From the IMG/VR virus record IMGVR_UViG_3300035501_000922: a stretch of 64,000 bases of DNA. One strand, written 5' to 3'. Shown one piece after another: positions 1 through 35,529 of the stretch. The stretch is from a virus. Its lineage: Duplodnaviria; Caudoviricetes. The position numbers were made by a program, and so were the translations under genes. The notes under the pieces were generated by a model. That model worked only from the letters and a program-made list of their open reading frames with translations, did no database searches and was not told the origin of the DNA. How positions within the stretch are numbered: the stretch's first letter is position 1; each line of letters starts with the position of its first letter.

Positions 1-334
1 ATATAAGTTTGTTATCACTTATACAGTTTTGTTATAAACTTCTTCATGTTTCCATGAATGATAAGACTATATCTTCATCTTTATTTCTGTTACCAAAATA
101 TAGATGCCTACCATTTCCACTCTACTTAGAGTGTACTCTACTCACTTCCAGTTACCGTATTTCTCAAATAACCGTGTTTTCGATAGTCGTTGAACGTTCT
201 TCCATTAGGAAGCTTCGCTGCTGATTGTCTCTATTCATTAGATTATTACACTTTGGTACTAATGACCTAACGAGAGTTCCCAGCAATTAGATAGGTTGCA
301 ATAATACATCGCTGTATTACGACGCCATTAATTA
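1..334 (-). ncRNA. Group I intron (ORF-less, IA-like) interrupting the sigma-like gene; 3' end just outside window
   Basis: Minus strand shows P (AATTGCTGGGAACTC), Q (AATCAGCAGC), R (GTTCAACGACTA), S (AAGATATAGTC); P1 ACGU/GCGU with U.G at exon end; 5' junction uncertain by 1 nt. Confidence 0.88.
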
Positions 335-1170
335 ACGTAGCAGTAAAGTTTGTTGTACATATTAATTTCTTGTAATGCATAATACGTACCAGATTCAGTA
401 TAATAGTATGTCAGCCTTCTATCTGAACTTTTTACAGGAGTTAATTCTTTATTTTTAACGCCTTCATCAATAAATGATTGGGGCACATTATTATCAAGGA
501 TATTACCGTTTTCATCTTTGAGTTCGTACGTTGTTCCATAACCAAAAATCTTAAAAAGATCCTGATAGAATCTGAAGATAATATCTGTATCTTTACCAGC
601 TTTAATAACATTTAAAGCTAGATAATGAAATAATACAGGAGACATAATTTTCATACCGAAAGATATTCTTAAAAGAATCTTAATATGCTGATTGGTGAAT
701 TCAAGACTCTCCAAGTGTTTCTTTTCGTTTTTCATATATTTTTTCTTCTCTTCGCTGTCTCCCTCTATGTCATCAAGATAATTATCTTCGACCATACGAA
801 CTATCTTATCAACCATAGTTGGTGTAAAAATGACCTCATAGATAAAATCTATGAAAGCATTCATGTTTTCTTCGGTAAATCTTTTCTCCTTGTCAAGAGA
901 AAATTTCAACTTCAAATAAGCTGTTGCAAGCTCATTATCAGTATCATAAAGATTCATAAAGAAGTTAGTGTACTTGGTAATAATACCTAACTGATTCTCA
1001 TATGAACCCTTGTTTATAATAAACTTATTATAAACTCTCAGATTTGAATAACCAAATATCTTATCGAAATGACAAACAAAGAGCTTGCCATCAGGTTCGA
1101 CAAATACCTGATTTTTCTTTGGTTTCCAAGTGTTAATCTTGGATGTTTTACGTTGTTTTTCTTCCGCCAT
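335..1170 (-). CDS. Exon 1 of AR9 gp226-like sigma/promoter-specificity subunit of non-virion RNAP
   Basis: Motifs FDKIFG, YDTDNEL, MVEDNY, ESLEFT, MKIMSPVLFHY, YNKL recalled from AR9 gp226; two genes from a chaperonin as gp226/gp228 in AR9; early motif upstream. Confidence 0.7.
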
Positions 1171-2078: not shown

Positions 2079-4118
2079 TTAAAAATTATGCTTTTGTGTT
2101 ACAACCATCTGGTTTCCTGTAATAAGGAGAGAAATTAAATCAATTGTAGCTTTAAGAATCTCCTCATCCGTTTGTGCACTGTTAATAACGTTATTGGTAA
2201 ATGACTTAGTAGATACATCAAAAACACAACCATTTGCAACGGAATAATTAATAATAATATCGTGCAAAGATGTTGTAACTGTTTTATCTGTTGAATGAAT
2301 CTTTTCTATAGCATTATTGAATGATTCGTAATCTTTAAAAATCTGCTTAAACAAAGGAAGCTTATTAAAAAGATCTTCAGGAATAGTTCCATCAACTAAC
2401 TCAATTTCAATATCGTTAAATGCATTTGACAATACGGTACGATATACATCTTCAAATCCACCTTGAAGAATTTCGTATAAAGTTCTTGTCACATCATCAT
2501 AGTCACAACAAACTCTTTTATCAATAGCTCTTAAAAGGTCTACATTACAACCATTAACTACGCCATGATTGAATGCGGATGCAGCAGCCTTTATAGCATC
2601 ATCAACCGCATCTTTCAGTAACTTCTGGGAAAGTTCACTATCGGCTCCGACCTCGATAATACCCATTTTTAAGTTAAGTGAATAGAAGCGTTCTTGTGCC
2701 TGACTAACTTCAAGATTAAATGTACCAAGTTTCTGATATTTTGCTTCTGTCTCAGCAAGTGTATCTTTAGCATCTTTATATATAACATCAAATCTCTTTT
2801 CATCATATACAAAGCTGCCAAATACTGATGACTTCAGTCCAATCGAGCAATCCTTAACGTATCCAAGTCGAATCGGATTTTCTATAAGGTCAGGTAATCT
2901 ATAACCTTCAGGGAGCTCTTCTTGACCATAAGTAAAATTACTAGCAGTCAATGAACCAGCATTGTCATGAAGAATCATACACTTTGTACCCTGTATTTCT
3001 CGATTATGAATATTAAAGATTTCCCAAATATATCTACCATTATCGTACTCTTCAAAAATAGTCCTTTCAATAGGTCTATCAATAATAAGAGTATTAGTCA
3101 ATACTGCAAAATCTTCAATCAATCTTCTTGCATGAGCAGAAGTAGACTTATAGGTTGTTAAAACCATATTAATATCCTTATTCTTCTGGTACTCATTGTT
3201 TAAGTCACGAGCAATTACTTGTCTTAAAGCAACCTCATCATATAAAGGTGCTGCAACAATGAGATGACGTCCCATGTACTTACTCTGTTCATTCAGAGGT
3301 TTGAGAATCTTCTCATATGTATCTTTCGTAACTTTTGTAGAGAATATTACAATGTCAGCGTCGGAAAGCTTCATTGTATCATCATCTGAATTTATGTATA
3401 ACTTATCGGTGAGCGTTAAGTCAAACTTATAGCCATCAATAAGTCTTTTCTTTGTAATTCCATCAGGAGCAAGCATACAGCTGATAGCAGGACAACCAAG
3501 TTCCTTATATAAGTCAGATATATATTCTGTTATTTCTTCATCACCATTACTAGAGATATAAACAACATCGTAGATATTTTTATATAAAGTTTCAGGGTCA
3601 TCACTGCGAATTACTCTTACATATTCTTGTAAGTCTTTAACAAGGTCTTCCTTGATTTTATTATACTTCTTGATAATATCTCTAGGAAGGATGGAATGAT
3701 TATTTAACCAATCCCTTCTTTCAATGTAATTCTGATAAATGCTATTTGTTGCAATTACTGCAGATGTTGTTCCATCACCAACTGAATAATTCAAACGTCC
3801 GCATATATCAGCTGCCATGTCGGCAATTGCTTGGTCAACGAGTGTTTCAGACGCATCCATTGAAAGATTTTTCATGATTGTATATCCGTCTTTAGTCACA
3901 TGGCTCCACGGATAATTATAAATTAACGTGGGTGCACCATAAGGACCAAAAGATTTAGATAGAGTTTTCCAAAGAAGATGAAAAACCTTCTGGATTCTCT
4001 CTTCAAACTCTTCCTTGGAAATTACATTAACGGCAGGATCCTTCTTGAATCTTCTACCATCTTCAGAACTCATATCGGTACCGACGTTGAGTTCTTTAAC
4101 TTCACCATTGTTTGCCAT
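2079..4118 (-). CDS. groEL: Phage chaperonin (GroEL-like)
   Basis: SFGPYG, TKDGYT, GDGTTSA ATP-binding motif, DAVDDAIKAA, GVVNG; start moved to MANNG after RBS. Confidence 0.92.
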   Translation of the reverse strand: MANNGEVKELNVGTDMSSEDGRRFKKDPAVNVISKEEFEERIQKVFHLLWKTLSKSFGPYGAPTLIYNYPWSHVTKDGYTIMKNLSMDASETLVDQAIADMAADICGRLNYSVGDGTTSAVIATNSIYQNYIERRDWLNNHSILPRDIIKKYNKIKEDLVKDLQEYVRVIRSDDPETLYKNIYDVVYISSNGDEEITEYISDLYKELGCPAISCMLAPDGITKKRLIDGYKFDLTLTDKLYINSDDDTMKLSDADIVIFSTKVTKDTYEKILKPLNEQSKYMGRHLIVAAPLYDEVALRQVIARDLNNEYQKNKDINMVLTTYKSTSAHARRLIEDFAVLTNTLIIDRPIERTIFEEYDNGRYIWEIFNIHNREIQGTKCMILHDNAGSLTASNFTYGQEELPEGYRLPDLIENPIRLGYVKDCSIGLKSSVFGSFVYDEKRFDVIYKDAKDTLAETEAKYQKLGTFNLEVSQAQERFYSLNLKMGIIEVGADSELSQKLLKDAVDDAIKAAASAFNHGVVNGCNVDLLRAIDKRVCCDYDDVTRTLYEILQGGFEDVYRTVLSNAFNDIEIELVDGTIPEDLFNKLPLFKQIFKDYESFNNAIEKIHSTDKTVTTSLHDIIINYSVANGCVFDVSTKSFTNNVINSAQTDEEILKATIDLISLLITGNQMVVTQKHNF

Positions 4119-4143
4119 AAATAAATCTCCCTTCAAAAAATGT

Positions 4144-4172: not shown

Positions 4173-4883
4173 CTAGTTCAATCGTGTTATGTCGAAGAAA
4201 TCATATTTAAATACATACTCTTTACTAAGCTTTCCAAAATCAACTTTATAATTATCCTTGTCTATCATATTATACCTATAACCATTAGGTATTAATACGG
4301 ATGCACATTTAAGTTTTCCAGTTTCAGCTAAGATATTAATTTTATTAATATCCGAAAAAACAAATGTTGAATCATTCGGAATCTTAGCAATAACACTTCG
4401 AAAATCACCACATACAAATTCAGCTTTCTTTCCGTATAAACGAGTTATATCACTTCTAATAAATGGATTATCATCTTTATCATATATGACAACACGCTTT
4501 ATCAGTTTTTCTTGTGCTACAGCAAGTCTTATAACATCAGCAAAACTTAATTCTGAATTAATAGTAAAAAACTCATCAGTTGCATGTAAATAATTTCTCA
4601 ATAAATCATCATGAAAACCCTCAGGTATTTTTTCAACAGGGATACGAATTGGTAAATCTTTAAAGAAGTTTATATGTCTTCTATTGATGTACCATTCGAA
4701 TAATGATGGGGTATCTAACATTTTTATTTCGGTAGTATCAAAAATATTCTCAATATTATCATTGTCTTTAAGAGCTACGAGTAACACAAACATTGGCATT
4801 TTAATAACATCGTGGTACTCTACAAATAAACACTGAGAATTATAGAATATTGTGTCTTTGGTAACATACACATGCTTTTCCAT
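4173..4883 (-). CDS. Hypothetical protein
   Basis: 236-aa ORF with AAGGAG RBS. Confidence 0.75.
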   Translation of the reverse strand: MEKHVYVTKDTIFYNSQCLFVEYHDVIKMPMFVLLVALKDNDNIENIFDTTEIKMLDTPSLFEWYINRRHINFFKDLPIRIPVEKIPEGFHDDLLRNYLHATDEFFTINSELSFADVIRLAVAQEKLIKRVVIYDKDDNPFIRSDITRLYGKKAEFVCGDFRSVIAKIPNDSTFVFSDINKINILAETGKLKCASVLIPNGYRYNMIDKDNYKVDFGKLSKEYVFKYDFFDITRLN

Positions 4884-4947: not shown

Positions 4948-5649
4948 TTATGACATTGGTAAGAAATCACTCATGTCTCCGCTATAAGTATTAGTCGGGG
5001 CAGAGTAGTTATTATTACCAGAGCCATATGATGTATTCTGGTTATTATTCCTATATAATGCTTTATTAGCATTGGAATAATTAATTGAATGTGCAGTCAT
5101 AGGTACAAGGGACTGACAACCTTCAATTTTTTTCATGAAATTGTACAGGTCAGCTTCAACAGGAACTTCAGTTCCAGCACCTGTAATATAGTTATACCCA
5201 GTCATAAAGCTCTTCTTATTAAACTTATGTCTGAGAACATTTTCTTCATTAGTGACACCATCTTCATTTAAAGCCGTTGCAATTTCGAGATAAGCATCTT
5301 TTCCATCATAATAAATAGAAAGAGCTTTACGATTCTCATTATTTCCGATAGAAATTGTAACCTTTGCTTCAGTTGAATTTTCGATGGCAGGTTTAATTTC
5401 CTTATTAAAACCTTCAAACAGTGCAATTGCATTTTCTTCTCGTATTGATGTATTAATCTGCTGTGAAATTTCAGTTGCATATTGTGTTACACCGGTAGAA
5501 TCCTTGCCAACTGCAGGCTGTAGTTTAATTGATAAATTCCTATTCCAACCACCAACACTTAAAAGTGATGTATCGGAATACGATGTGTAAAATGAAGTAT
5601 TAATATTAACCCCATTTCCATTGTTATTCTGTCTTCTCGCGAACATCAT
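4948..5649 (-). CDS. Putative single-stranded DNA-binding protein
   Basis: Beta-rich core, N/S/G-rich linker and acidic-hydrophobic tip (GDMSDFLPMS) like SSB tails. Confidence 0.45.
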   Translation of the reverse strand: MMFARRQNNNGNGVNINTSFYTSYSDTSLLSVGGWNRNLSIKLQPAVGKDSTGVTQYATEISQQINTSIREENAIALFEGFNKEIKPAIENSTEAKVTISIGNNENRKALSIYYDGKDAYLEIATALNEDGVTNEENVLRHKFNKKSFMTGYNYITGAGTEVPVEADLYNFMKKIEGCQSLVPMTAHSINYSNANKALYRNNNQNTSYGSGNNNYSAPTNTYSGDMSDFLPMS

Positions 5650-5696
5650 AGTCAAAAGACTCCTTTCAAAATATAATTGTTTTTTATTACTAAAGA

Positions 5697-6482
5697 TTAT
5701 TCATCTGTAGTTTCAATATTGTTTTCCTCATTATTCTTTTTCCTTTTGGGATAATTCTTTAATATTTTATTTCGTATCTTTGATTCTAATTCAACAAAGA
5801 AGTTTTCATCAATCATTTTAATATAGTCTTGAATAAAATTACCTGTTATTAAGAATTCATCAAATTTCTCTTCTACAAATTCTGTTTCAAGACAATTACT
5901 ATCTGATTTGATTAATTCAAAGAAATCATCAACTGTTAATTCTTGAGATAGAATATAACGAATTACTGAACCTAGATTAGAAAGAATGATTACATCATTT
6001 TCATCATTAATTTCAACTTTGAAATTAAGTGTAGTAACATCCCTTTTCTTAGGTGCAATCTCTTCGTCAACAAGTTCTTCTTTATGCTCATTAATATAAT
6101 TTATTATTAATGTGACAAAGTTCTTTTTTATATTCTTAATGAAGAATCTATATGTTAAAAGAATTAGTTCATGTTGGTCATCATCTTCTGCATCTTCAAT
6201 ATCAGGAAAACCTATAGAGAGATAGGTATCAAAAATATTAATAATAAACTTAATAAATTGGTCATGCATCTGCTCTAAGTTTTCTTGTTCTTCTTCATAT
6301 AAATTCTCTTTACTAAAATCATATTTGGTAATAAATGTTTGTATATAATCTTTTTTTCGATATTCTAGTGGATCTTGAAATTGTGATTCAATTGCTTTTT
6401 CTAATAAATTTAACGGAACCTCTGATAAAAAAAGTTCGTCCTCAATATCAGTAGGCTCGTATTCAAATTCTGTATTCCACAC
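5697..6482 (-). CDS. Hypothetical acidic protein
   Basis: 261-aa ORF, GTG start with GAAAGGAG RBS. Confidence 0.75.
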   Translation of the reverse strand: MWNTEFEYEPTDIEDELFLSEVPLNLLEKAIESQFQDPLEYRKKDYIQTFITKYDFSKENLYEEEQENLEQMHDQFIKFIINIFDTYLSIGFPDIEDAEDDDQHELILLTYRFFIKNIKKNFVTLIINYINEHKEELVDEEIAPKKRDVTTLNFKVEINDENDVIILSNLGSVIRYILSQELTVDDFFELIKSDSNCLETEFVEEKFDEFLITGNFIQDYIKMIDENFFVELESKIRNKILKNYPKRKKNNEENNIETTDE

Positions 6483-6516: not shown

Positions 6517-6906
6517 TTATAAAAATTTCGGCTCATTTAAAGCTTTAACTTTAAGTTCACATTGATATTGAAAATCACATTCATTATCGCAACCACATGA
6601 ACTGGTTTCTGTTTTTTCAGGATTTTGTGGACATGTGTTATATAAACCACAGTTAGTATGAGGACAGTAAGACTCACGTATACATTTCTGTGATCCTGCA
6701 TGAAGTTTATGGTTTATATAATCTAGACTTGTAGTCTGGGTAAACTGTGGATATATAAATGTTACTGTTCTGCCACAATTACAACAACGTAATGTATGAC
6801 CTACTACGTTATTAAGATTATCAATAATATCAGTGTAAAGTTTATTTTTACAACCACAGTAATGACATTTCTCAAGCATCGTTTCCGAACGTGCAAATTC
6901 TCTCAT
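6517..6906 (-). CDS. Cys-rich zinc-ribbon protein
   Basis: CHYC...CCNC and further Cys clusters; RBS; GACA-N6-TA upstream. Confidence 0.65.
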   Translation of the reverse strand: MREFARSETMLEKCHYCGCKNKLYTDIIDNLNNVVGHTLRCCNCGRTVTFIYPQFTQTTSLDYINHKLHAGSQKCIRESYCPHTNCGLYNTCPQNPEKTETSSCGCDNECDFQYQCELKVKALNEPKFL

Positions 6907-6974
6907 TTAAAAGCACTCCTTTAAATAAAAATTTTTATTTAATTGTCGTTCTATCCGTAAAATGAGTCTTTTCA

Positions 6975-6986
6975 TTTATATATTAT
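6975..6986 (+). promoter_or_regulatory. Early-type promoter motif
   Basis: TTTATATATTAT heading the LRR region. Confidence 0.6.
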
Positions 6987-7093
6987 TTTCGTGTAATTGA
7001 ATAAGAAATAGAGAAATTCGATTATACATAAATAAAATAGGTCGCCTGAACCTAGTCAAAAGAAAGGCATTTAAAATACTGGGAGGTATTTTT

Positions 7094-7495
7094 ATGGCAA
7101 AATTTATTTGGAACACCTGGAACACCCGAAGAAAATTCAAGTCTGCGGTCAAAAGTGCACGAAAGACCGCACAAAAAAAGAATAAGCATGACGAGGCTAC
7201 AAGATGGCTTGTATTATTTAAACAAGCTGTGGCTGTCGAAGACAAATTTGATGCTGACGATGCATTGGAAAAAGTGTTCGACGATATACTCAAAACACAC
7301 TTTATTTGGTATGAGCTGTATGGATATGAGTTGAGAGAAATGTTTGAATTAATGGATTCATTTTATGAAGTTCTGTTAGAAGCCCACAATGAAGAGGGTT
7401 TCCTCAGTGACAGTGAAATGGAAGACGTACGACAGCTATGGATGGATGACGGAGGACTAAGAATAGCAGCATCCATATTATGCTGTAAGGCATAA
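7094..7495 (+). CDS. Hypothetical early protein
   Basis: 133-aa ORF, GGGAGG RBS. Confidence 0.75.
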   Translation: MAKFIWNTWNTRRKFKSAVKSARKTAQKKNKHDEATRWLVLFKQAVAVEDKFDADDALEKVFDDILKTHFIWYELYGYELREMFELMDSFYEVLLEAHNEEGFLSDSEMEDVRQLWMDDGGLRIAASILCCKA

Positions 7496-7514: not shown

Positions 7515-8189
7515 ATGAAAATCGAAAATAACATTATTATTGACTGTCCCGACAAAACCATCACTGAGGCGGTCATTCCTGACACTATAAGAGCTATCAG
7601 ACCGTATGCATTTTGCAAGTGCGTGTCACTTAAGAAAATCGCGTTTTCAGATAGCGTAAAATTTATTAAAAGTGCCGCATTTATGGGTTGCACTTCACTG
7701 GAGAGTGTGGTGCTACCTAAAAATCTAAAAAGGATTGAATCATACACATTTCAGTACTGCTCATCGCTTGAGAAAGTTATAATATCAAATAGCGTAACAA
7801 GCATTGGTGATTCGGCATTCAATAACTGCTCCTCACTTGAGGAGATCATAATCCCGAATAGTGTAACAAGCATTGGGGAGTTTGCATTTTGCAAGTGTGG
7901 ATCACTTAAGGGAATCACGCTTTCAGATAGCCTTGCAGTAATCGGTGAACACACGTTCAGTGAATGTGTGTCTCTTAAGGGAATCACAATCCCTGATAGC
8001 GTCGAAGTAATAGGCTATGGCGCTTTTTACGAATGTTCATCACTGAAAAGTGTAATAATACCGAGCAGTGTAACAGTCATCAAAAGATTTGCGTTTCACA
8101 AATGCCCGATTGAAAGTGTCGTGGTTCCACGCGATACGATCATCGAATATGGTGCGTTTGATGAACGCACGAAAATAATCAGAGTATAA
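7515..8189 (+). CDS. BspA-type leucine-rich repeat protein 1
   Basis: 23-aa repeats LxxIxIPxSVxxIGxxAFxxCxx; no signal peptide. Confidence 0.92.
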   Translation: MKIENNIIIDCPDKTITEAVIPDTIRAIRPYAFCKCVSLKKIAFSDSVKFIKSAAFMGCTSLESVVLPKNLKRIESYTFQYCSSLEKVIISNSVTSIGDSAFNNCSSLEEIIIPNSVTSIGEFAFCKCGSLKGITLSDSLAVIGEHTFSECVSLKGITIPDSVEVIGYGAFYECSSLKSVIIPSSVTVIKRFAFHKCPIESVVVPRDTIIEYGAFDERTKIIRV

Positions 8190-8195
8190 AAATTA

Positions 8196-8229
8196 AGGTC
8201 GGCGGTTCATCTGCCGACCTTATTTTTTT
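8196..8229 (+). terminator. Intrinsic terminator
   Basis: AAGGTCGGCGG/CTGCCGACCTT stem plus T-run. Confidence 0.8.
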
Positions 8230-8304
8230 CATATATTTATACATTATTTTTTCATATCTCGATGACTACAAATTAAATAAACTAAATATGAAAGGAAGAT
8301 TAAT

Positions 8305-8736
8305 ATGAATGATATTCTAGAGATTAAGTCTGGGTTTCTCATTGCTTGTCATGATAAAGACATTAAGAGTATAGAAATACCCAGTACAGTAAAAGTAATT
8401 TGCAAAGGGGCATTTTTAAATTGTTCATCCCTCGAAAGTGTAACAATACCTCCCTCTGTAAATATTATTGGTGAGCTGGCGTTTTTATTTTGTACGTCCC
8501 TCTCAAGCATTGTAATACCTGGTTCAGTAAGAAGAATCAGTAACGGTGCATTTTCCAAATGTATATCCCTTAAATCTGTTGAAATCTGTAGTGGAGTAAC
8601 AAGTATCGGTATACGTGCATTTATTGGTTGTACATCATTATCATCAATTGTAATACCCGAAAGTGTTACAAGTATCGGCGAACACGCATTTGACAAGAAT
8701 ACTGTACAGTATAGATATTTTAGTACATTACGATAG
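8305..8736 (+). CDS. BspA-type LRR protein 2
   Basis: 23-aa LRR_5 repeats; own early motif at 8236-8247. Confidence 0.9.
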   Translation: MNDILEIKSGFLIACHDKDIKSIEIPSTVKVICKGAFLNCSSLESVTIPPSVNIIGELAFLFCTSLSSIVIPGSVRRISNGAFSKCISLKSVEICSGVTSIGIRAFIGCTSLSSIVIPESVTSIGEHAFDKNTVQYRYFSTLR

Positions 8737-8739
8737 ACA

Positions 8740-8774
8740 AAAAAGACTGTGATTTCGTATCACAGTCTTTTTTT
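8740..8774 (+). terminator. Intrinsic terminator
   Basis: AAAAAAGACTGTGAT/ATCACAGTCTTTTTT. Confidence 0.8.
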
Positions 8775-8820
8775 ATCCGTAAAATGGGTCTTTATATTTA
8801 TACATTATTTATGTGTAAAA

Positions 8821-8864
8821 CAATAACTGAGTCAGCTGTAAAGACCTTAAAACAGAGAAGGAGT
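8821..8864 (+). repeat. LRR-array leader repeat copy 1 (divergent)
   Basis: GTCAGCTG-TAAAGACCTTAAAACAGAGAAGGAGT. Confidence 0.8.
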
Positions 8865-8869
8865 ATATT

Positions 8870-9397
8870 ATGAATACAACAGTAGAAAATATGAAAATTG
8901 AAGAAGGCGTTCTTGTTGAATGCCTTGATAAAACCGTTACAGAGGTTTCAATACCTGAAAATGTAAAGGAAATTGGTGCCAATGCATTTTATGGCTGTGA
9001 CAGGTTAAAAACTGTCATAATACCCGAGGGTATAACAGTAATTGGTAGAGGGGCATTCTCGCGTTGCAGTTCTCTCTCAGAGGTTTCAATTCCTAGTAGC
9101 GTTGAATATATTGGTGTAAGTGCATTCATGCGTTGTGGTAACTTAAAATCTATTACAATACCTAAAGGAGTAATAAGTATCGGACCTGCTGCATTCTTAC
9201 ATTGTGACTCCCTTTCAGAGGTTTTAATACCTGAGGGGGTTGAGTATATTGGAACTAATGCATTCTTAAGTTGTCCGAACCTCAAGACAGTAAGAATACC
9301 CAAGACGGTAACGAAACTTGGTATGGCTGTATTTAATAATGGTACCAAAATCATTTGTTGCCATGAGTTTGATAGCTTTGGCCATCCTAAGATATAA
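8870..9397 (+). CDS. BspA-type LRR protein 3
   Basis: IEEGVLVEC N-cap plus LRR_5 repeats. Confidence 0.92.
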   Translation: MNTTVENMKIEEGVLVECLDKTVTEVSIPENVKEIGANAFYGCDRLKTVIIPEGITVIGRGAFSRCSSLSEVSIPSSVEYIGVSAFMRCGNLKSITIPKGVISIGPAAFLHCDSLSEVLIPEGVEYIGTNAFLSCPNLKTVRIPKTVTKLGMAVFNNGTKIICCHEFDSFGHPKI

Positions 9398-9440
9398 TAA
9401 TTAAGTCAGCTGGTTAAAGACTTTAAAACAGAGAAGGAGT
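9395..9440 (+). repeat. LRR-array leader repeat copy 2
   Basis: TAATAATTAAGTCAGCTGGTTAAAGACTTTAAAACAGAGAAGGAGT. Confidence 0.9.
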
Positions 9441-9446
9441 TACAAT

Positions 9447-10040
9447 ATGAGTGAAATTCTGTGCATTGAGAATGGTGTTCTCATCAAATGCCTAGACAAA
9501 ACCGTTACGGAAATAGTCATTCCTGAAGGGGTGACTAGAATTGGTATCGCGGCATTCGAGGACTGCGATAGGTTAACAAATGTCACAATGCCTAAGAGTA
9601 TGACAGTGATTGATGGATGGGCATTTAGGTATTGCAGTTCTCTCTCAGAGATTTCAATACCTAAAAAGGTGACAGAGATTCGTGATGCTGCCTTCTATGG
9701 CTGCGAATCTTTGACAAAGATATCAATACCTAAAGGGGTGGCAGTGATTTCTCGCAACACATTTTATGGGTGCATTAGGTTAAAAACTGTCGTAATACCT
9801 AAGAGTGTGAGATTAATTGGCGGAAGTGCATTCGAACATTGTAGTTCTCTTAGTTCCGTCAGAATACCTGAAGGGGTTGAGGGTATTGGGATTCGTGCAT
9901 TTTTAGATTGCCCAAATATCAAATCAATTAAAATACCTAATAGTGTAAAGACACTTGGAGGAGATGCATTTAATAGAGGCACGAAAGTCATTCGTGTGCA
10001 TGAATTTGATGGCATTGGATGGCAAAAAATGCTGGATTAA
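9447..10040 (+). CDS. BspA-type LRR protein 4
   Basis: IENGVLIKC N-cap plus LRR_5 repeats. Confidence 0.92.
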   Translation: MSEILCIENGVLIKCLDKTVTEIVIPEGVTRIGIAAFEDCDRLTNVTMPKSMTVIDGWAFRYCSSLSEISIPKKVTEIRDAAFYGCESLTKISIPKGVAVISRNTFYGCIRLKTVVIPKSVRLIGGSAFEHCSSLSSVRIPEGVEGIGIRAFLDCPNIKSIKIPNSVKTLGGDAFNRGTKVIRVHEFDGIGWQKMLD

Positions 10041-10044
10041 GATA

Positions 10045-10092
10045 TAATAATCAAGTCAGCTGGTTAAAGACTTTAAAACAGAGAAATGGAGT
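10045..10092 (+). repeat. LRR-array leader repeat copy 3
   Basis: TAATAATCAAGTCAGCTGGTTAAAGACTTTAAAACAGAGAAATGGAGT. Confidence 0.9.
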
Positions 10093-10098
10093 TTTATT

Positions 10099-10872
10099 AT
10101 GAATACATTAGAAATCTTGAAAATTGAAAACGGTGTTCTCACCAGATGCCTCGACAAAAACGTTACCGAAATCACAATACCCAAGGGGGTAACGGAAATC
10201 GGTACAAAAGCGTTCTATAACTGTGAACAGCTTGTATCAGTCGATATACCCGAAGGAGTGAAAAAGATCGGTTACAAAGCGTTTCGAAATTGCGATTCGC
10301 TAATAACGGTCGTATTACCCAAGGGGGTAACCGAGATAGGTAAAGATGCATTCATGGCTTGCACGAGCCTTGAATCTGTATCAATACCTGATACTGTTAC
10401 AAAAATCAACAGCTATGCTTTCTGCGCTTGTAAAGCGCTAAAGTCGATTAAAATCCCAAACGGGGTAAAAGAAATCGGCAATAAAGCATTCTGTGATTGC
10501 AATTCAATACTGTCGGTCGAAATACCCGACAGTGTGATTAAAATCGGAAACTATGCGTTCTGCTGGTGCTGTTCACTTGAAAAAGTGGACATTCCTAAAG
10601 GAATAACATCTATAAATTCCGGATTATTCGCAAAGTGTCACTCCCTTCAGTCTGTTACCATCCCCGAATGGATAAAAACGATTTCCATGGGTGCATTTTA
10701 CTATTGCACGTCGCTTACAGAAGTCAGAATTTCTGACGGTGTGAGAGGAATCGTCAGAAACGCTTTCATAGGTTGCGAGTCTCTAACGGAAGTCTCAATA
10801 CCTAAAAGTGTAACGAGACTTGATGAGTGGGCCTTCGACGAGGAGAAGGTCGTACTGCAAAGGGAAGTATGA
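10099..10872 (+). CDS. BspA-type LRR protein 5
   Basis: IENGVLTRC N-cap plus LRR_5 repeats. Confidence 0.92.
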   Translation: MNTLEILKIENGVLTRCLDKNVTEITIPKGVTEIGTKAFYNCEQLVSVDIPEGVKKIGYKAFRNCDSLITVVLPKGVTEIGKDAFMACTSLESVSIPDTVTKINSYAFCACKALKSIKIPNGVKEIGNKAFCDCNSILSVEIPDSVIKIGNYAFCWCCSLEKVDIPKGITSINSGLFAKCHSLQSVTIPEWIKTISMGAFYYCTSLTEVRISDGVRGIVRNAFIGCESLTEVSIPKSVTRLDEWAFDEEKVVLQREV

Positions 10873-10883
10873 AATCAGAGGAG

Positions 10884-10929
10884 TAATAATCAAGTCAGCT
10901 GGTTAAAGACTTTAAAACAGAGAAGGAGT
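10884..10929 (+). repeat. LRR-array leader repeat copy 4
   Basis: TAATAATCAAGTCAGCTGGTTAAAGACTTTAAAACAGAGAAGGAGT. Confidence 0.9.
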
Positions 10930-10933
10930 TATT

Positions 10934-12031
10934 ATGAGCACGAATCTAAAAATCAAAACTATCCTCTATGATTGTCCTAATAAAAAAATAGAGGCAGTAA
11001 CCGTACCGGACGGAGTAACAATAATTGGGGATAAAGCATTCGATGAGTGCTATTATCTTGAGAATGTAAAAATTCCCGACAGTGTAAAATATATCAAGGA
11101 ATATGCATTCAGAGGTTGCTCTGCACTTAGGTCGGTAGGTCTATCCAAAAATATAGAAAAAATCTACCAAGGTGCATTCGAAAACTGTGCAAAGCTTGAA
11201 GGAATCACAATTCCCGACAGTGTAAAACATATCGGGTACTATGCATTCTCAGGCTGCTCTGCACTTAGGTCAGTGGAACTGCCTAAAAATCTAGAAGTAA
11301 TCAACCACAATGTATTTGAAGACTGTACAAATCTTCAAAGAATCACAATTCCCGATAGCGTTACAGAAATCGGTAATTATGCATTCGCAAATTGCGAATT
11401 AGCTTATGGTGTAAGAATTCCCGACAACGTATCATCGATTGGTAATTATTCATTCAGAGGGTGTATTTCACTTGATGATATAAAAATTCCCGACAGTGTA
11501 AAATATATCGGGTGGTCTGCATTCTCAGGTTGCTCTGCACTAAGGTCAGTAGAGCTGCCCAAAAATCTAAAAATAATCCATAGTGCGTTGTTTTGTCGTT
11601 GTACCGCACTTAGGGATATAGAAATTCCGAATAGTGTTAGAGAAATTGAGGATCATGCATTTAATCTCTGTGTTTCACTTGAAGGAATAACAATCCCGAA
11701 TAGTGTTAGGGAAATAGACGATGGTGCATTTTCTTTTTGTCGTTCGTTAAAAAATATTGTACTTCCGAACAGTATTACGGAAATTAAATATGTTACATTC
11801 TGTAGTTGTATATCGCTTGAAGAAATCACAATTCCGGATAGTGTTACGGAAATAGGCCAGGGGGCATTTGTTCATTGTACAGCCTTAAAGTCTGTTACAA
11901 TTCCGAGCAGTGTAACAGCTATAAAAAAGCGTGCGTTTGCAGAATGTGCAATTGAACGAGTGGAAGTTCCACTCAATACGGATGTTGCAGACGACGCATT
12001 CGATGCTGACGTGGAGATAATCAGAGTGTGA
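10934..12031 (+). CDS. BspA-type LRR protein 6
   Basis: About 14 LRR_5 repeats with internal nucleotide-level duplications. Confidence 0.92.
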   Translation: MSTNLKIKTILYDCPNKKIEAVTVPDGVTIIGDKAFDECYYLENVKIPDSVKYIKEYAFRGCSALRSVGLSKNIEKIYQGAFENCAKLEGITIPDSVKHIGYYAFSGCSALRSVELPKNLEVINHNVFEDCTNLQRITIPDSVTEIGNYAFANCELAYGVRIPDNVSSIGNYSFRGCISLDDIKIPDSVKYIGWSAFSGCSALRSVELPKNLKIIHSALFCRCTALRDIEIPNSVREIEDHAFNLCVSLEGITIPNSVREIDDGAFSFCRSLKNIVLPNSITEIKYVTFCSCISLEEITIPDSVTEIGQGAFVHCTALKSVTIPSSVTAIKKRAFAECAIERVEVPLNTDVADDAFDADVEIIRV

Positions 12032-12038
12032 TAATCAA

Positions 12039-12078
12039 AGAAGACTGCGATATGAAAACGCAGTCTTCTTTTTTTTTT
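12039..12078. terminator. Bidirectional intrinsic terminator
   Basis: AGAAGACTGCG/CGCAGTCTTCT between convergent genes. Confidence 0.8.
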
Positions 12079-13951
12079 AGAATTTAATAATATTTGTTAT
12101 TGTGTCAGTTTTTCTATTGACACCATTTTTACTTTTACCTTCTTCAGTGAATCTTGAACCGAATATTTCAAGTACAGGTTTAAACGGTGCAATGATATTA
12201 TTAATCATTGTTGAATAGTCAATATACGGTTGTGTCCACTCAGGAATTGTAGCATTACTCGGTATTGCTAATACCTGTAATCCTCTTTTTTTATAAGTCC
12301 ATTGACCTTGTATTTGGTCTTTATACTTTTCACGGTCTTCACCAAGAGCAACATCCACAAAACTATTCCATGCTTCAGGCCCAAGTTTTTTATACTTAGA
12401 TTTATATTTTTTTGGTAAATCCTCATACCAATCTTTCTTTTTTGGATTTACATAATCTATACCGTTATCTTTAGTCTTAGTGACAAAGATTCCAGTAGTA
12501 TCATTAAAAATCTTCTCAATGATCGTATCATAAATATCAGGATGAGTTCTTTCTAAATCAGCCATATCTTCCTCAGTAAAAATATTCATCTTTACTAAAC
12601 TTACCTTTGACGGGAAATCAATAGCATTATCAGGATATAGAATATTCCATGCTAGAGCACCACGAACACTTTGCTCAGAAGCTGGGTCTTTATATGCACC
12701 AAGTTCTTTAGCACTTCCATTAGGTAAAAACGTTCTTTCACCTCTTTGTATTGATTTTCTGATTTCTTCTTTGAACTCTCTGATTCCTTTTATCATTTCT
12801 TTCAACTCAACAGTTTCTGAGTTAAGTATATGATTCTTAATTAACTTCATGAATACTTCTTCAGCATATTCTGAAGTTGTAGCTTTTTTAAAGTCAAATC
12901 CTTTAATATCAGCTTTTGGTGGAGAAAGTAAATTACCCTCTCTCAGTTTCTGTTTTGAAATATATCTTTTCTTTGCTTTACCTATAACCAATAGAGTATT
13001 AAAGAACTCATTTTTCATATTAAAACGAGGTCTATACTCTTCAGGAATATTTGAATACTTTCCATAATGAATAAGCATATCATAAATAGCATTAGTTATT
13101 GTATACGTAATAGTATTTACAACAACGAATCCATTATGCTCAAAGTCTCTTCCATATGTGTTATCTCCTACAACATCATCAAATATATAATTGATTAATG
13201 TATCAAGAGATAAGAAGTTTGAGTCAGTGTCTATAACTGTGACAACACGACGCTTAAAATTTTTTAATCTATATATTCTATCAACCGATAGATACTTTAC
13301 ATAACAATACTTCATCAAATAATCAGAGAGGACTCCTAATGTTCCTTCAATTTTTTTAGGTGGGTCATTAGGGTCCATGAAGTACTGCTTATTTACAAAC
13401 TTATTCCAGTCTTTTGCTGTTTTATTTGAAAAATCATACCTATATTCATTAGGAATTTTTTGTAACCACTTATCATCTTTAGTATCAGCATACTCAAGAT
13501 TCTCAACGTTTTCAAATATAGTTTCAAATAAAGATTTAATAAAATCGTGGTCATGAATAAATTCAATCATATTATTTTTATAATATAACCGAGTAATTTC
13601 TTCTTCACTTAATGAGAGCAAATAATTGTATAGTATTTCTTCATCATTATCTTGAGGTTGTAGTATTTTATTAATTAATCTATCAACCAAATCATTTATA
13701 GATTTCACTTGAACAAAATCGTCTATTATAATATCTTCTTTTAAAACGACATTAATCCATTCGATAAGTTCTGTTAAATCTAAGTATATATAGTTATCAG
13801 CAAGAAACGATTCAAACATTGTTTCTGCTGTAGAAATTACTGATTGAGCAGTAAGTGTTGTGGCAGGACCACTCCATTTAGAATAAAATGCTGAAGATGG
13901 TGCACCACTCGATCCATAATATGAATTCATATTTATCTTTTCGTTAGCTTG
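12077..13951 (-). CDS. Family B DNA polymerase, polymerase-domain subunit, exon 2
   Basis: QANEKINMNSYYG (motif B), IDTDS (motif C), KKRY, IKGFD. Confidence 0.88.
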   Translation of the reverse strand, partial: QANEKINMNSYYGSSGAPSSAFYSKWSGPATTLTAQSVISTAETMFESFLADNYIYLDLTELIEWINVVLKEDIIIDDFVQVKSINDLVDRLINKILQPQDNDEEILYNYLLSLSEEEITRLYYKNNMIEFIHDHDFIKSLFETIFENVENLEYADTKDDKWLQKIPNEYRYDFSNKTAKDWNKFVNKQYFMDPNDPPKKIEGTLGVLSDYLMKYCYVKYLSVDRIYRLKNFKRRVVTVIDTDSNFLSLDTLINYIFDDVVGDNTYGRDFEHNGFVVVNTITYTITNAIYDMLIHYGKYSNIPEEYRPRFNMKNEFFNTLLVIGKAKKRYISKQKLREGNLLSPPKADIKGFDFKKATTSEYAEEVFMKLIKNHILNSETVELKEMIKGIREFKEEIRKSIQRGERTFLPNGSAKELGAYKDPASEQSVRGALAWNILYPDNAIDFPSKVSLVKMNIFTEEDMADLERTHPDIYDTIIEKIFNDTTGIFVTKTKDNGIDYVNPKKKDWYEDLPKKYKSKYKKLGPEAWNSFVDVALGEDREKYKDQIQGQWTYKKRGLQVLAIPSNATIPEWTQPYIDYSTMINNIIAPFKPVLEIFGSRFTEEGKSKNGVNRKTDTITNIIKF

Positions 13952-15176
13952 CAAAATTAAAAATTATACTTTTTAGAAATTTCTACCCATGATGCTTTAT
14001 ATTTTATATTATATATTTTTGATGCTGGTATGTCCAGTTGTTTGGATATAACTGATACTTTAATGCCTTTCTCTAGCATAGTACATATATCTTCTGCTAA
14101 TTTAGAATCTATATGCCTTATTATATGAAAGTCATATTCACATGATATATCTGTCCAGTTTAATCCACTTCGAATATTACGAACCGTTGGTTTAGGTACA
14201 CTGAGTAATTCAGAAACTTCACTAATATTATATCCAAGCTCTAAATATTCACATATGTTTCGAGCCATCTCAATATCAATATTTTTTTTTGTTGAAAATG
14301 TATAATTACATGAAATAGATTTCCAACACGTTCGATTTTTTATATTCTGGACTGTTGTTACAGGTATATCAAGTTTACTGGCTATATCTTTAACTCGTTC
14401 ACCATCCTCAAGCATTTGACATATTCTCTCAACGGTTTCATTGGTATTTTTAGCTACAGGGCATTCCTCACCAACTCTTCGTAAACCTGTTTTTATAGCA
14501 TGAGAATTATTATGATAAGCAGTACACCATTCCAAATTTGTAACACTGGGATTTAATTTGTTGCCATCAATATGATTAACCATAGGAAAGTTGTGTTTGT
14601 TATCAAGAAACGTACTTGCAACTATTCGATGAAGACTAAAAGTTCTGGTTTTTTTAATACCATTTCGTTCACCATATAAACCAACTGAATAATACCCCGT
14701 ACTATTAATCCAACAAGGAACATTTTTCTTTAATTTATGGTCATAAATAATTCCATTTTCGAAGACTTCATAACGTTTTTTCTGTATACATGGGTAGTTT
14801 ACATATTTACTTTTCATTTCATATTTTTCCTTTCATTTTTTAATGAAAAGTTAAAGTATAATTTTTTAATTTAGACTATATCTTCGATGCATATTCTGTC
14901 ACCAAATATACATCGCCTTCCGTTTCGGATTTAGAAAAATCCTACTCTACTCACTTCTTCACTTAAGTATTTCTCTTAAGCTATGCTTTCGATAGTCGTT
15001 GAACTCACATCCATAAAGGATGCTTCGTTGCGTCGATTACTACATTAATAACCTTTTTACTATACCTTTGGAGTTACCCATTGCCACTATTATATTACTA
15101 TAATAATTTAGTAGTTATTAATTACGTAGTGTTCCCGCAATTAGAAAGGTTACGTAGCCAAGCTTTAACTAAGTTA
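13952..15176 (-). mobile_element. Group I intron in DNA polymerase carrying an HNH endonuclease in P9
   Basis: P1 CGUAGU/GCUACG; AATTGCGGGAAC, GTTCAACGACTA, AAGATATAGTC; terminal G; splicing restores DRS|QANEKINMNSYYG. Confidence 0.9.
13957..14817 (-). CDS. Intron-encoded HNH homing endonuclease with C-terminal HTH repeats
   Basis: LHRIVA...VNHIDGNKLNPSVTNLEWCT...NNSHA; three HTH-like repeats. Confidence 0.9.
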   Translation of the reverse strand: MKSKYVNYPCIQKKRYEVFENGIIYDHKLKKNVPCWINSTGYYSVGLYGERNGIKKTRTFSLHRIVASTFLDNKHNFPMVNHIDGNKLNPSVTNLEWCTAYHNNSHAIKTGLRRVGEECPVAKNTNETVERICQMLEDGERVKDIASKLDIPVTTVQNIKNRTCWKSISCNYTFSTKKNIDIEMARNICEYLELGYNISEVSELLSVPKPTVRNIRSGLNWTDISCEYDFHIIRHIDSKLAEDICTMLEKGIKVSVISKQLDIPASKIYNIKYKASWVEISKKYNF

Positions 15177-15593
15177 ACTACGGTCTAGGTCTTGGTATTC
15201 GTAACTATCAAAACCTAATGTTTCTCCTACACTAAACATTTGTTTTTTATATGCTTTACGACTAGCAGCCCATTTATCAAGCATTAACGAAATTGGGTTT
15301 AATGCTTCATCTTGAGTTTTATAAAATGTGCCATTACCTGCAATAAGAGGCTTTCTTTCAAGAGCCCAGTCAAAAACACTTATTAGTGTAGTTTCTCTAT
15401 TTTCACCAGTGTAGTTATTATCTAATTCTACACGTGGATTCATTGTTTGTTCTTTTATCATTTTAAGAACTATTTTTTCCACTTTATCTTTGTCCCAATC
15501 GGGATTTAACCGACACATTATGTTTACCATCCGTTTTTTATACTTATTGATAAACTTACTATCGGCATTAATATGAGTATTCATAAAACTCAT
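15177..15593 (-). CDS. Family B DNA polymerase subunit, exon 1
   Basis: IAGNGTFY...RKAYKK...DLDRS joins exon 2 in frame. Confidence 0.85.
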
Positions 15594-18567: not shown

Positions 18568-18686
18568 TAAAAATCACATCCTTTAGTGGTATTTCTATTA
18601 AAACTATGTTTTTTCATATATTTATACATTATTTTTTCGTATCTTGATGCTTACAATTTAAATAAACTAGAAAGGGTGTGATAACC

Positions 18687-24695: not shown

Positions 24696-24742
24696 CATTA
24701 GTAATGAATAAGAAGGTCATGGGAAGAGCTGGTTACTTCGGT
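24696..24742 (+). CDS. rpoC: Beta-prime subunit 47-nt micro-exon 2 (bridge helix)
   Basis: Encodes (S)LVMNKKVMGRAGYFG, aligning to GARKGLADTALKTANSGYL. Confidence 0.85.
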
Positions 24743-25091
24743 GTGTAATATTCGCCGGGAATATATAGTAATATATATTCATGTACTCTCTTAATTGCTG
24801 GGAACTCTTGCTAGGTCATTAGTACTACGTGTAATAATCTAATGAATAGAGACAATCAGCAGCCAAGACTCTTTATAAGAGTAAGGTTCAACGACTATCG
24901 AAAAGGTATCTATAATAGAAATATCATAGAGAGTAACTGAGTAGAGTAGGATTTAAGTAAATCCGAAATGGAGAGCTTCCTATATTTGGTAATAGAATAT
25001 AGGAATGAAGATATAGTCTAGTATCCTATGGAGACATAGGGAAGTTCATAAGAGAACTGTATAGAATTAACACTTCTATATGAATAAAACG
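24743..25091 (+). ncRNA. Group I intron 2 of beta-prime subunit (ORF-less)
   Basis: P1 UUCGGU/GCCGGG; P, Q, R, S elements; terminal G; in-frame junction YFG|KIVLLLAR. Confidence 0.9.
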
Positions 25092-26800: not shown

Positions 26801-26920
26801 CCTCTATCTTTTTTTATTTTTTTATTTTTGAACTAGCCAATTAATTACTTGAATAAACCTATTTTTCATTTTAATAAAGACATTTTCTTAATCTATTTGA
26901 AGAAAGGACTGATTTATCCA

Positions 26921-27793: not shown

Positions 27794-28105
27794 TTAATTA
27801 ATAAATTTGGCTGTTATAAAACTGCGTGAACTGTTTTATTCAACAGGTGTGAGTTATAAAACTCGCTAACGGTAGAAGTGATATACATAAATAAGCTTCG
27901 TAAGAGAACCTACGGTCCAGCAATGGATAGCAGGTAATACCGTGCTAAGTTTATCTAAATAATAAATAGATAAAAAAGTGTAGAGACTAAGGCTGATGAA
28001 TGTAAGCCTGTAGGGTGGAGATGAATACCACTCAAAGTGCGTGGCAAATGTTTTTAACATTTGAAGAGATAGTCCATTTGTAATTGAAAAATTACTGGAG
28101 CAATG
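27794..28105 (+). ncRNA. Group I intron A of nrdD
   Basis: P1 UAACGGU/GCUGUUA; GCTAACGG..AATACCGTGC, GTAGAGACTA, AAGAGATAGTCC; junction TNG|QAPF. Confidence 0.9.
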
Positions 28106-28988: not shown

Positions 28989-29260
28989 TGACCCTTAAGT
29001 TAAGACGTCCTTAAACCCTGTGAACGCATGAAAAAGCGGTGTGGAGATTTTCTCTGCTAACGGCGAAACCTCTATGAGGTAATACCGTGCCAATTATTGA
29101 ATTCAATAAAGGTGTAACGACTATCGAAAACATAACCTAATTACATAGGTGAAGAAGTGAGTAGAGTAGAATTGATTTTATCACAGTTCGAAGCGCAGGG
29201 CATGTATTAATGAATACATGATGAGATAGTCTATGCATATAGCGATATATGTTTAACATG
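28989..29260 (+). ncRNA. Group I intron B of nrdD
   Basis: P1 GGACGUU/GACGUCC; GTAACGACTA, ATGAGATAGTC; junction restores YGRFNQGVVTINL. Confidence 0.9.
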
Positions 29261-35446: not shown

Positions 35447-35529
35447 AATTAATAAAGAAGAAGAATAGATGTACTATTCTTCTTCTTTTTATATAATAAA
35501 ATATTATTATAGTAACTTTATTCTAATGA

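Follow-up and report, generated by a model that had tools for sequence, protein, structure and literature searches.

An accessory block of six tandem, signal-less LRR_5 genes in a candidate AR9/PBS1-like jumbo phage, with a possible role as early cytoplasmic binders

LRR solenoids are a classic recognition scaffold in eukaryotic immunity, and the bacterial ones are mostly surface proteins. The named members of the BspA/TpLRR group (6mlx, 4h09, 4fs7, 4gt6 and PcpA, 4cp6) come from bacteria or protists and are secreted, lipid-anchored or exposed at the surface. Phages carry the same domain family: PHROG 35892 and 18805, both of unknown function, entries for uncultured Caudoviricetes labelled 'BspA family LRR' in BFVD, the tail-module LRR proteins of NatCom_23091 and the DUF7941-LRR proteins of Goslar. 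These database phage proteins are mostly single and large (280-1600 aa), with extra domains and a place in tail or structural modules. Multiple diverged paralogues on binder scaffolds, accessory and lineage-specific within a very large viral genome, are described for the repeat families of giant viruses (FNIP/FGxxFN LRR, ankyrin, F-box; CroV, PMC9525666). For early transcription, the reference is Bacillus phage AR9, in which the promoter consensus of the virion RNA polymerase, AAATATATATTAT-(6N)-G, was defined experimentally (PMC5312081). Our literature search found no study on phage LRR proteins that are made early and retained inside the host.

The window analysed here is a stretch of 64,000 nucleotides. 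Judged from its sequence, it comes from an uncultivated jumbo phage that resembles AR9 and PBS1 and infects an anaerobe: it encodes a homologue of phage RNAP beta and an anaerobic NrdD, and its polymerase is ~30% identical to the polymerases of AR9 and PBS1. Six tandem ORFs on the plus strand (g1-g6) encode proteins of 143-365 aa that consist of LRR_5 repeats between an N-cap and a C-cap only, preceded by a small ORFan:

orf7094, 7094-7495, plus strand: ORFan of 133 aa, co-transcribed with g1, GC3 0.38, belonging to the inserted block described below
g1, 7515-8189, plus strand: LRR_5 gene, 224 aa, 8 repeats
g2, 8305-8736, plus strand: LRR_5 gene, 143 aa, 5 repeats, deviant C-cap
g3, 8870-9397, plus strand: LRR_5 gene, 175 aa, 6 repeats
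g4, 9447-10040, plus strand: LRR_5 gene, 197 aa, 7 repeats, solenoid in the AF2 model
g5, 10099-10872, plus strand: LRR_5 gene, 257 aa, 10 repeats, GC3 of 0.43, the highest
g6, 10934-12031, plus strand: LRR_5 gene, 365 aa, 14 repeats

The 50 repeat units of the array are spaced at exactly 23 aa in all six genes. In a profile search, all six proteins scored 116-433 bits against LRR_5 (PF13306; E 1e-33 to 1e-131), for which the curated Pfam gathering cut-off is 27.7 bits, and no other real Pfam domain was found in any of them. The start of g1 at 7515 was favoured over an alternative ATG at 7500 because of its Shine-Dalgarno sequence, AAAGGAG. Pairwise identity among the six is 35-53%, dS between the coding regions is at least 0.8, as expected of old paralogues, and dN/dS for g3/g4 is 0.46. 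A common C-cap links g1 and g6 (53% identity over 204 aa), and two-repeat (138-nt) blocks are duplicated internally in g6. Each gene is complete, from its start through both caps to its stop, and partial cassettes are absent from the array.

The one protein modelled, g4, came out in AF2 as a plain solenoid (pLDDT 91.7) that is capped at the N-terminus by a beta-hairpin. Among solved structures it lies closest to TpLRR (6mlx) and to three gut-bacterial proteins, 4h09, 4fs7 and 4gt6, with TM 0.75-0.81 and rmsd 2.2-2.3 against 6mlx and 4h09. A simple Kyte-Doolittle scan detected no hydrophobic N-terminal segment or TM-like stretch in the six proteins, and the absence of signal peptides is judged from this hydropathy together with the model. 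The initial annotation had described six signal-less BspA/LRR_5 genes, which the ORFs, profile scores, 23-aa spacing, hydropathy and model all bear out. In its 23-residue V.IP..V..I...AF..C..L scaffold, its HMM scores and a solenoid fold that begins with a beta-hairpin N-cap, the array agrees with the BspA/TpLRR group; it differs from the named members in having no signal, anchor or extra domain and in consisting of phage genes behind early-type promoters. Assignment to the BspA-like surface adhesins (Tannerella BspA, Trichomonas BspA-like proteins, PcpA, HupY/LrrG) was rejected, the proteins having neither a hydrophobic N-terminus nor an extra Pfam domain; matches to the NCBIfam HupY model were confined to the LRR part and reached 49-147 bits against a cut-off of 1250. 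Signal-less LRR_5 proteins sharing the array's N-cap are common in gut bacteria, so the cap-only signal-less architecture is not phage-specific.

These features bear on the idea that lysis releases the proteins to work extracellularly, with bacterial surfaces, mucus or the animal host as their target, in the style of 'Ankyphages'. Bacterial and protist BspA-type LRRs are mostly extracellular adhesins (PMC2843621), partial HupY/LrrG matches exist, lysis would set signal-less proteins free, phage ankyrin proteins offer a precedent (bioRxiv 10.1101/608950) and the anaerobic NrdD suits a host-associated anaerobic habitat. However, early-only promoters would be odd for a post-lysis product, no link to eukaryotic targets was seen and signal-less LRR_5 proteins occur commonly in bacteria too, and we consider an extracellular role quite improbable.

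Early-type motifs had been claimed at 6975, 8236 and 8797, and they are real: the window holds 10 sites of the form TATAYATTAT-(6N)-G against 0.39 expected, and the motif fits the AR9 early consensus. Together with three intrinsic terminators they delimit three units, orf7094-g1, g2 and g3-g4-g5-g6, each of which starts at an early-type motif:

Promoter module P1, 6949-7004, plus strand: core TATATATTAT at 6977-6986, predicted +1 G at 6993
Intrinsic terminator T1, 8194-8222, plus strand: -21 kcal/mol, z -8.4, followed by a T-run
Promoter and 5'UTR module P2, 8222-8288, plus strand: core TATACATTAT at 8238-8247
Intrinsic terminator T2, 8739-8773, plus strand: -18.5 kcal/mol, z -7.7
Promoter module P3, 8771-8826, plus strand: core TATACATTAT at 8799-8808, predicted +1 G at 8815
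Intrinsic terminator T3, 12037-12071, plus strand: -18.7 kcal/mol, z -5.6

P1 and P3 have ~45 nt in common, and P2, at whose site (8238) the +1 position is A, not G, is ~92% identical to a module upstream of an ORF at ~18688. No terminator was found between g3 and g6, and the DNA polymerase gene, which runs convergently, has its 3' end directly after T3. As in AR9 early units, the promoter core has a G six bases downstream, promoters stand directly after terminators and the motif precedes nucleotide-metabolism genes, here the NrdD operon elsewhere in the window. AR9 differs in being a distant relative: the motif used to predict early timing was defined in a phage whose polymerase is only ~30% identical. 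In addition, tblastn searches gave no LRR_5 match in AR9 or PBS1. A late motif, AACA-N6-TA, precedes the head-tail joining gene and other minus-strand genes, and within the array no convincing copy was found; the one candidate there, which is doubtful, arises from the variant leader of g5. On this motif evidence, g1-g6 would be expressed early in infection.

The array and orf7094 form a 5.1-kb inserted block, flanked by the DNA polymerase gene on one side and by a conserved block of the replication module on the other. In 10 of 12 related phage contigs (eight of the twelve relatives being complete genomes), the window's conserved gene block comes next after the polymerase gene; in the nearest of these, L002, 105 bp separate that gene from the homologue of window positions 6517-6906. 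Because relatives lack the entire inserted block at the syntenic position, comparison of these sequences supports an accessory, lineage-specific nature. GC3 in the block is 0.24-0.43 versus 0.17-0.27 in core genes. Database searches returned no close relatives for g1-g6 and none for orf7094, and a partial or reordered array was found in no relative examined. LRR_5 genes were detected in none of the ten more distant relatives, with the closest complete relative (G001) as positive control. G001 carries four LRR_5 genes at other positions, one of them directly behind a terminator and an early motif; its small signal-less ones adjoin a DnaB-like helicase and an acetyltransferase, and among phage proteins g5 and g6 match best to its 578-aa LRR_5 protein (41-44% identity), which has a 210-aa N-terminal domain and whose gene adjoins a fibre-like one. 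Such clean presence and absence among related 250-kb phages provides a natural comparison for the block's effect on host range.

Raised GC3, the lack of close database relatives with an ORFan at the block's head and the relatives without the block would all fit passenger DNA, acquired from the host or another phage and amplified without benefit to the phage. Against this, none of the six frames is broken and their scaffold residues are conserved, the g3/g4 dN/dS is 0.46, the genes come with early promoters, terminators and strong Shine-Dalgarno sites of their own, and the leader (below) is kept identical; we regard passenger status as very unlikely.

The neighbourhood also bears on whether the products are virion-associated host-recognition parts, such as separately made binding tips or fibre accessories, or are packaged and injected with the DNA. 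Gut-phage LRR_5 proteins do occur in tail modules, where the copies of Ruminococcus phage NatCom_23091 follow tape-measure and minor tail genes; the 578-aa protein of G001 has its fibre-like neighbour; and the Goslar DUF7941-LRR proteins have been proposed as host-recognition factors. These and the other database phage proteins differ from the array, whose six tandem genes stand in the replication region behind early motifs and encode small, cap-only products. Neither an N-terminal attachment domain nor a targeting peptide is present, the N-terminus in the g4 model being a solenoid cap; the genes lie on an inserted island within the replication module; and three early-type motifs stand upstream, with at most one doubtful late motif. 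The receptor-binding or fibre LRR class was rejected on the cap-only proteins, the location and the motifs, and a virion role appears unlikely.

A phage-directed function, for instance as adaptors, chaperones or regulators in early processes such as replication-factory organisation or the early-to-late switch, would suit the polymerase, helicase and chaperonin-like genes that adjoin in the window and in G001, the early-type promoters and a leader whose conservation across cistrons suggests coordinated regulation. Six diverged paralogues are nevertheless easier to reconcile with a range of external targets than with a single phage partner, and no core phage process can depend on the array, because L002 is without the block and ten further relatives are without LRR_5. 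This function, too, is not what we expect, though it retains some small probability.

We favour, at an even balance of confidence, a duplicated, accessory gene family whose products would bind host or phage macromolecules early and in the cytoplasm, in the service of host takeover or counter-defence. The injected virion RNA polymerase would read the AR9-type early promoters, and the products would accumulate in the host cytoplasm within the first minutes of infection, since they are solenoids without export signals. There they may bind host (possibly phage) macromolecules stoichiometrically, with specificity differing between paralogues, most likely as accessory host-takeover or counter-defence factors. 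The family, its architecture, the promoter and terminator motifs, the insertion and the paralogy are established from the sequence; we infer the early timing, the cytoplasmic location and the binder role of g1-g6. PADLOC gave no match for the array, a weak test in that its models describe defence, not anti-defence; no other functional match and no similarity to known anti-defence or takeover proteins was found. The giant-virus repeat families resemble such a family in multiplicity and accessory status, whereas the array has a bacterial host, another LRR class, far lower copy number and an operon organisation with a shared leader. If the products are host-directed binders, they would be phage effectors of takeover or counter-defence that form a class not seen before, and would also supply natural binder scaffolds that are compact and contain Cys.

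Four leader copies accompany the last unit:

Leader copy 1, about 8826-8864, plus strand: degenerate, 5'UTR of the g3-g6 operon
Leader copy 2, 9388-9435, plus strand: core 9403-9435, then a GGAG Shine-Dalgarno, before g4
Leader copy 3, 10038-10085, plus strand: core 10053-10085, before g5, with a 2-nt change that alters the Shine-Dalgarno (GAGAAATGGAG)
Leader copy 4, 10877-10924, plus strand: core 10892-10924, before g6

The 33-nt core is identical at 9403, 10053 and 10892 (0 expected), and it remains 100% identical ahead of coding sequences that are 51-68% identical. Of the four near-identical ~46-bp leaders reported in the initial annotation, three answer the description and the one before g3 has diverged. 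No stable leader structure was found relative to shuffles (z -0.07 to +1.6 for the four copies, +0.5 to +1.6 for the three near-identical ones).

Direct repeats of this kind raise the prospect of a programmed cassette system, in which leaders act as recombination sites for integron-like reshuffling or VLR-like receptor assembly. The four repeats flank g3-g6, three of them being near-identical over 33-48 nt, and could support unequal recombination; the leader core stands before a different gene in another metagenome contig, L005; and the genome contains duplicated promoter and 5'UTR modules. Yet the neighbouring genes that were scanned include neither an integrase nor a recombinase, and the leader has no stable structure as RNA or DNA, on which grounds integron-like cassettes were rejected. 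Every gene is complete, and the coding regions are old paralogues, so gene turnover is not recent. The earlier suggestion that leader-plus-gene units are gained, lost and shuffled finds no support in relatives, none of which has a partial array, and the leader is not LRR-specific. A programmed cassette system is accordingly highly improbable.

Nor did the functional likeness to variable LRR receptors drawn in the initial annotation extend to the mechanism of lamprey variable lymphocyte receptors (VLRs). Constant caps, variable repeat number and a binder-repertoire design are shared, by analogy only. The array differs in having no incomplete germline gene, donor cassettes or Cys-knot LRRNT/LRRCT caps, and its variation is not focused on the concave face: entropy is 3.06 and 2.93 bits at concave positions 2 and 23, below the 3.41-3.87 bits at positions 12, 13, 16, 17 and 19, and repeat variation is distributed across all exposed positions. 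It is likewise doubtful that a sub-lineage of AR9-like jumbo phages maintains a private, expandable repertoire of cytoplasmic LRR binders, fired from virion-RNAP promoters at the onset of infection, in which every paralogue would disable its own immunity or housekeeping protein of the host and the leader would supply both shared translational control and recombination homology for expansion, contraction and gene capture.

For the accessory family of early binders that we favour, growth may have occurred in place by tandem duplication of gene-plus-leader units, with internal duplication of two-repeat blocks as a second route, and the leader may be an unstructured, selectively maintained expression element reused before another gene elsewhere. 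New here are the inserted-block status, the distribution of LRR_5 genes among the relatives, the variation beyond the concave face and the leader before a non-LRR gene. In L005 that gene is a small ORF unrelated to the array, and its sharing of the leader may indicate an undescribed regulatory element of this phage group.

The plus strand carries seven ORFs between 7094 and 12071, namely orf7094 and six leucine-rich repeat (LRR) genes of 143-365 aa, g1-g6. On sequence grounds, the best-supported reading of this array is an accessory, in-place-expanded family of predicted cytoplasmic binders served by early promoters. The ORFs are as follows.

7094-7495, plus strand: orf7094, a 133-aa ORFan
7515-8189, plus strand: g1, LRR_5 gene, 8 repeats
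8305-8736, plus strand: g2, LRR_5 gene, 5 repeats
8870-9397, plus strand: g3, LRR_5 gene, 6 repeats
9447-10040, plus strand: g4, LRR_5 gene, 7 repeats
10099-10872, plus strand: g5, LRR_5 gene, 10 repeats
10934-12031, plus strand: g6, LRR_5 gene, 14 repeats

All six LRR genes matched Pfam LRR_5 (PF13306, BspA type; E 1e-33 to 1e-131), and the Pfam profile search detected no other credible domain in them. Within PHROGs, they fall in phrog_35892 and phrog_18805, both annotated as function unknown. Repeats were counted by cutting on the scaffold V.IP..V..I...AF..C..L, and the 23-residue spacing was exact in 50 of 50. The N-termini pass directly into a conserved cap (e.g., I-E-N-G-V-L-x-x-C-L-D-K in g3-g5), an AF(D/N)xxTK(I/V)I-type cap is common to the C-termini, and a hydropathy scan of g1-g6 detected no signal-like or membrane segment. 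The initial annotation had described six proteins without signal peptide, anchor or catalytic domain, a description confirmed by the LRR_5-only content and the empty hydropathy scan. In the AlphaFold2 model (pLDDT 91.7, pTM 0.86), g4 is a plain solenoid, capped at the N-terminus by a beta-hairpin and ending in a disordered tail of ~15 residues; the nearest solved folds were TpLRR (6mlx) and the gut-bacterial LRR_5 proteins 4h09, 4fs7 and 4gt6. PADLOC returned no anti-defence or takeover homology for the array. A rival to the cytoplasmic reading is that the LRR proteins act extracellularly after lysis. The second repeat-rich protein of the window (31095-34157, plus strand; 1020 aa) has 12 matched phrog_25468 stretches, a weak YadA_head match and an unusual composition (GC2 0.53, GC3 0.18).

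The leading ORF, orf7094, matched no Pfam, PHROG, PADLOC or NCBIfam family and no homologue; its Atlas model is of low confidence, and an exact copy is recorded on a 256-kb contig. By exact-sequence look-up in the collection, both flanking ORFs were present and the six LRR proteins absent.

LRR_5 proteins of uncultured phages have already been annotated, mostly large and of unknown function, and in the literature searched jumbo-phage LRRs were found solely in host-recognition contexts. Signal-less LRR_5 proteins with the same N-cap are also present in bacteria (Oscillospiraceae, Treponema), which means that the architecture itself is no invention of phages. For g4 and g5, the top database proteins reached 44-55% identity across only part of the length and were taxonomically mixed (Treponema, Oscillospiraceae, Ruminococcus and others); because these are generic LRR_5 matches of at most 55% identity from mixed taxa, no donor can be named. 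In the virome records MT836667 and MT836206, the numerous LRR matches proved to fall in single giant ORFs (1113-1645 aa) instead of small-gene arrays.

The flanking polymerase fragment is ~30% identical to the divergent family-B polymerases of Bacillus phage AR9, PBS1 and other phiKZ-related jumbo phages, and the window also encodes a homologue of the phage multisubunit-RNAP beta subunit together with an anaerobic ribonucleotide reductase. Jointly, these genes indicate an AR9-like jumbo phage of an anaerobe as the source.

The motif TATAYATTAT-(6N)-G occurs at 10 sites in the window versus 0.39 expected from shuffles; the site at 8238, the eleventh, carries A in place of G at the final position. 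This motif is the core of the AR9 early promoter, experimentally mapped as AAATATATATTAT-(6N)-G+1 and used by the virion RNA polymerase that is injected at infection (PMC5312081); the consensus is that of AR9 at a polymerase identity of only ~30%. Three of the 11 sites (6977, 8238 and 8799) lie in the array, and the early-type motifs previously assigned to it are real; others are found ahead of the NrdD operon (early-type motif at 26372) and further plus-strand genes. AACA-N6-TA, the late motif of AR9, stands in front of a head-tail joining gene and a number of minus-strand genes and is absent from the array, save for one doubtful match that arises from the leader variant of g5. The genes g1, g2 and g6 are each followed by a strong intrinsic terminator (-18.5 to -21 kcal/mol, z -5.6 to -8.4), and the terminator scan detected none between g3 and g6; the three promoters and three terminators therefore define the units [orf7094-g1], [g2] and [g3-g6]. 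The first and third promoter modules (6949-7004 and 8771-8826) have ~45 nt in common. The g2 promoter and 5'UTR (8222-8288, plus strand; ~65 nt) is ~92% identical to 18608-18672 (plus strand), at an unrelated ORF 10 kb away, with similarity ending at the ribosome-binding site. A sigma-70-like TTGATA-N18-TATAAT (9369-9398, plus strand; 11/12 match) overlaps both the g3 end and the first part of the g4 leader and is a possible host-type internal promoter; sigma-70-type promoters in the region are not enriched overall (25 vs 19.8 +/- 4.9).

The leaders of g4, g5 and g6 have an identical 33-nt core, AAGTCAGCTGGTTAAAGACTTTAAAACAGAGAA (0 expected by chance); it ends in a strong GGAG Shine-Dalgarno, and a degenerate copy makes up the g3 5'UTR. 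The leader carries an AAGTC-N11-GACTT dyad. Among leader copies the -50 to -1 regions are 76-88% identical, and the coding starts 51-68%. Since the core is identical while coding starts and synonymous sites have diverged, its conservation is owed to selection or gene conversion rather than to a recent origin. An RNA-structure explanation was rejected, as the three near-identical copies fold no better than shuffles (z +0.5 to +1.6; -0.07 to +1.6 across all four copies). The core has one occurrence in the metagenome collection, on a 1.9-kb contig with no other similarity to the window (MTKZ01125866.1, 1500-1560, minus strand; AAAGTCAGCTG-CAT-AAAGACTTTAAAACAGAGAA, 28/28 specified bases), where it precedes an unrelated 92-aa ORF. 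The leader would thus be a portable expression element rather than an LRR-specific cassette boundary. The full leader pattern had no match in IMG/VR, and three IMG/VR matches to a 20-nt part, all intra-coding and without the upstream half, were judged chance; no leader copy was found in the relatives G001 or G002.

Through the polymerase, 12 related phage contigs were recovered (41-75% identity), eight of them complete genomes of ~250 kb. Ten of the 12 carry, after the polymerase gene, the conserved block of the window, which runs, in window coordinates, 5697-6482, 4948-5655, 4173-4883, 2079-4136 (chaperonin-like), 1251-2057 and 328-1170. A homologue of 6517-6906 ahead of this block was detected in only three (L002, L019 and L020); in L002, the nearest relative with this order, the gap behind the polymerase gene is 105 bp. 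The 5.1-kb block of orf7094 and g1-g6 lies on the strand opposite to the conserved block and, as 10 of 12 relatives keep the conserved order without it, is thus an insertion found in this phage alone. At 0.24-0.43, its GC3 exceeds the 0.17-0.27 of core genes, which would fit a foreign origin. At 6907-7093 (minus strand), the minus-strand block 6906 to 328 is parted from the polymerase gene by the insertion, and the 150 nt upstream of 6906 contain neither an early nor a late motif.

Combined profile and protein searches found no LRR_5 genes in ten more distant relatives and four in G001, the closest complete relative:

169 aa and 187 aa: tandem pair beside an acetyltransferase
161 aa: next to a DnaB-like helicase, with a terminator and early motif immediately upstream
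578 aa with a 210-aa N-terminal domain: L010 772-3112, minus strand, ~182-184 kb, directly after a 200-aa fibre-like ORF

A direct search of G006 for an LRR gene returned nothing. The small G001 genes show that small early LRR genes recur in the sub-lineage, with differing numbers and positions. The initial annotation had proposed units that can be gained, lost or shuffled. LRR gene number and order are not invariant across relatives, with none in the ten distant ones and four elsewhere in G001. A phage-internal role for the LRR proteins is disfavoured by the lack of LRR_5 from most relatives. Among phage proteins, the 578-aa protein, likely a structural LRR protein, matches g5 and g6 best, and other phages carry LRR_5 in tail modules; even so, the early motifs, genomic position and lack of an attachment domain disfavour virion or fibre parts as the identity of the array proteins.

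Pairwise identity among g1-g6 is 35-53%. The genes g1 and g6 group together and have a C-cap in common, and g3, g4 and g5 form a second group. Within g6, blocks of 138 nt (two repeats) have been duplicated. The sole usable pair, g3/g4, gave a dN/dS of 0.46 (dS 0.80); the other pairs were saturated (dS 1.6-4.0), so that per-site selection tests are not meaningful. That the array is mere passenger DNA is disfavoured by its intact frames, this dN/dS and its dedicated signals. Variability across the 50 repeats is distributed over all exposed positions, with ~3.0 bits at concave positions 2 and 23 versus 3.4-3.9 bits at positions 12, 13, 16, 17 and 19. The suggested likeness to lamprey variable lymphocyte receptors did not hold, since variation in the array is lower on the concave strand positions rather than focused there. 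A programmed cassette or receptor-like system is a rival to in-place expansion, against which stand the absence of a recombinase among scanned neighbours and of partial cassettes; no partial LRR array was found among the relatives examined.

The DNA polymerase (12077-15593, minus strand) is itself in two ORFs, an N-part (15174-15593) and a C-part (12077-13954), with an HNH+HTH endonuclease ORF (13957-14817) between them; in the relatives L001 and L002 it is a single uninterrupted ORF of 762-771 aa. Rfam at gathering score detected no intron in the split region 12077-15593, and group I introns (RF00028) were found at 42-344 (minus strand, 97 bits) and 24733-25041 (plus strand, 78 bits), the latter between an HNH ORF (23476-24477) and an RNAP beta fragment (25080-26297). 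NrdD (26849-29014, plus strand) is split into two ORFs that are separated by 270 nt and cover profile positions 3-293 and 294-394. Six clustered tRNA genes lie at 35022-37183 (plus strand): Ser-TGA, Lys-TTT, Ser-ACT, Leu-TAA, Gln-TTG and Met-CAT.
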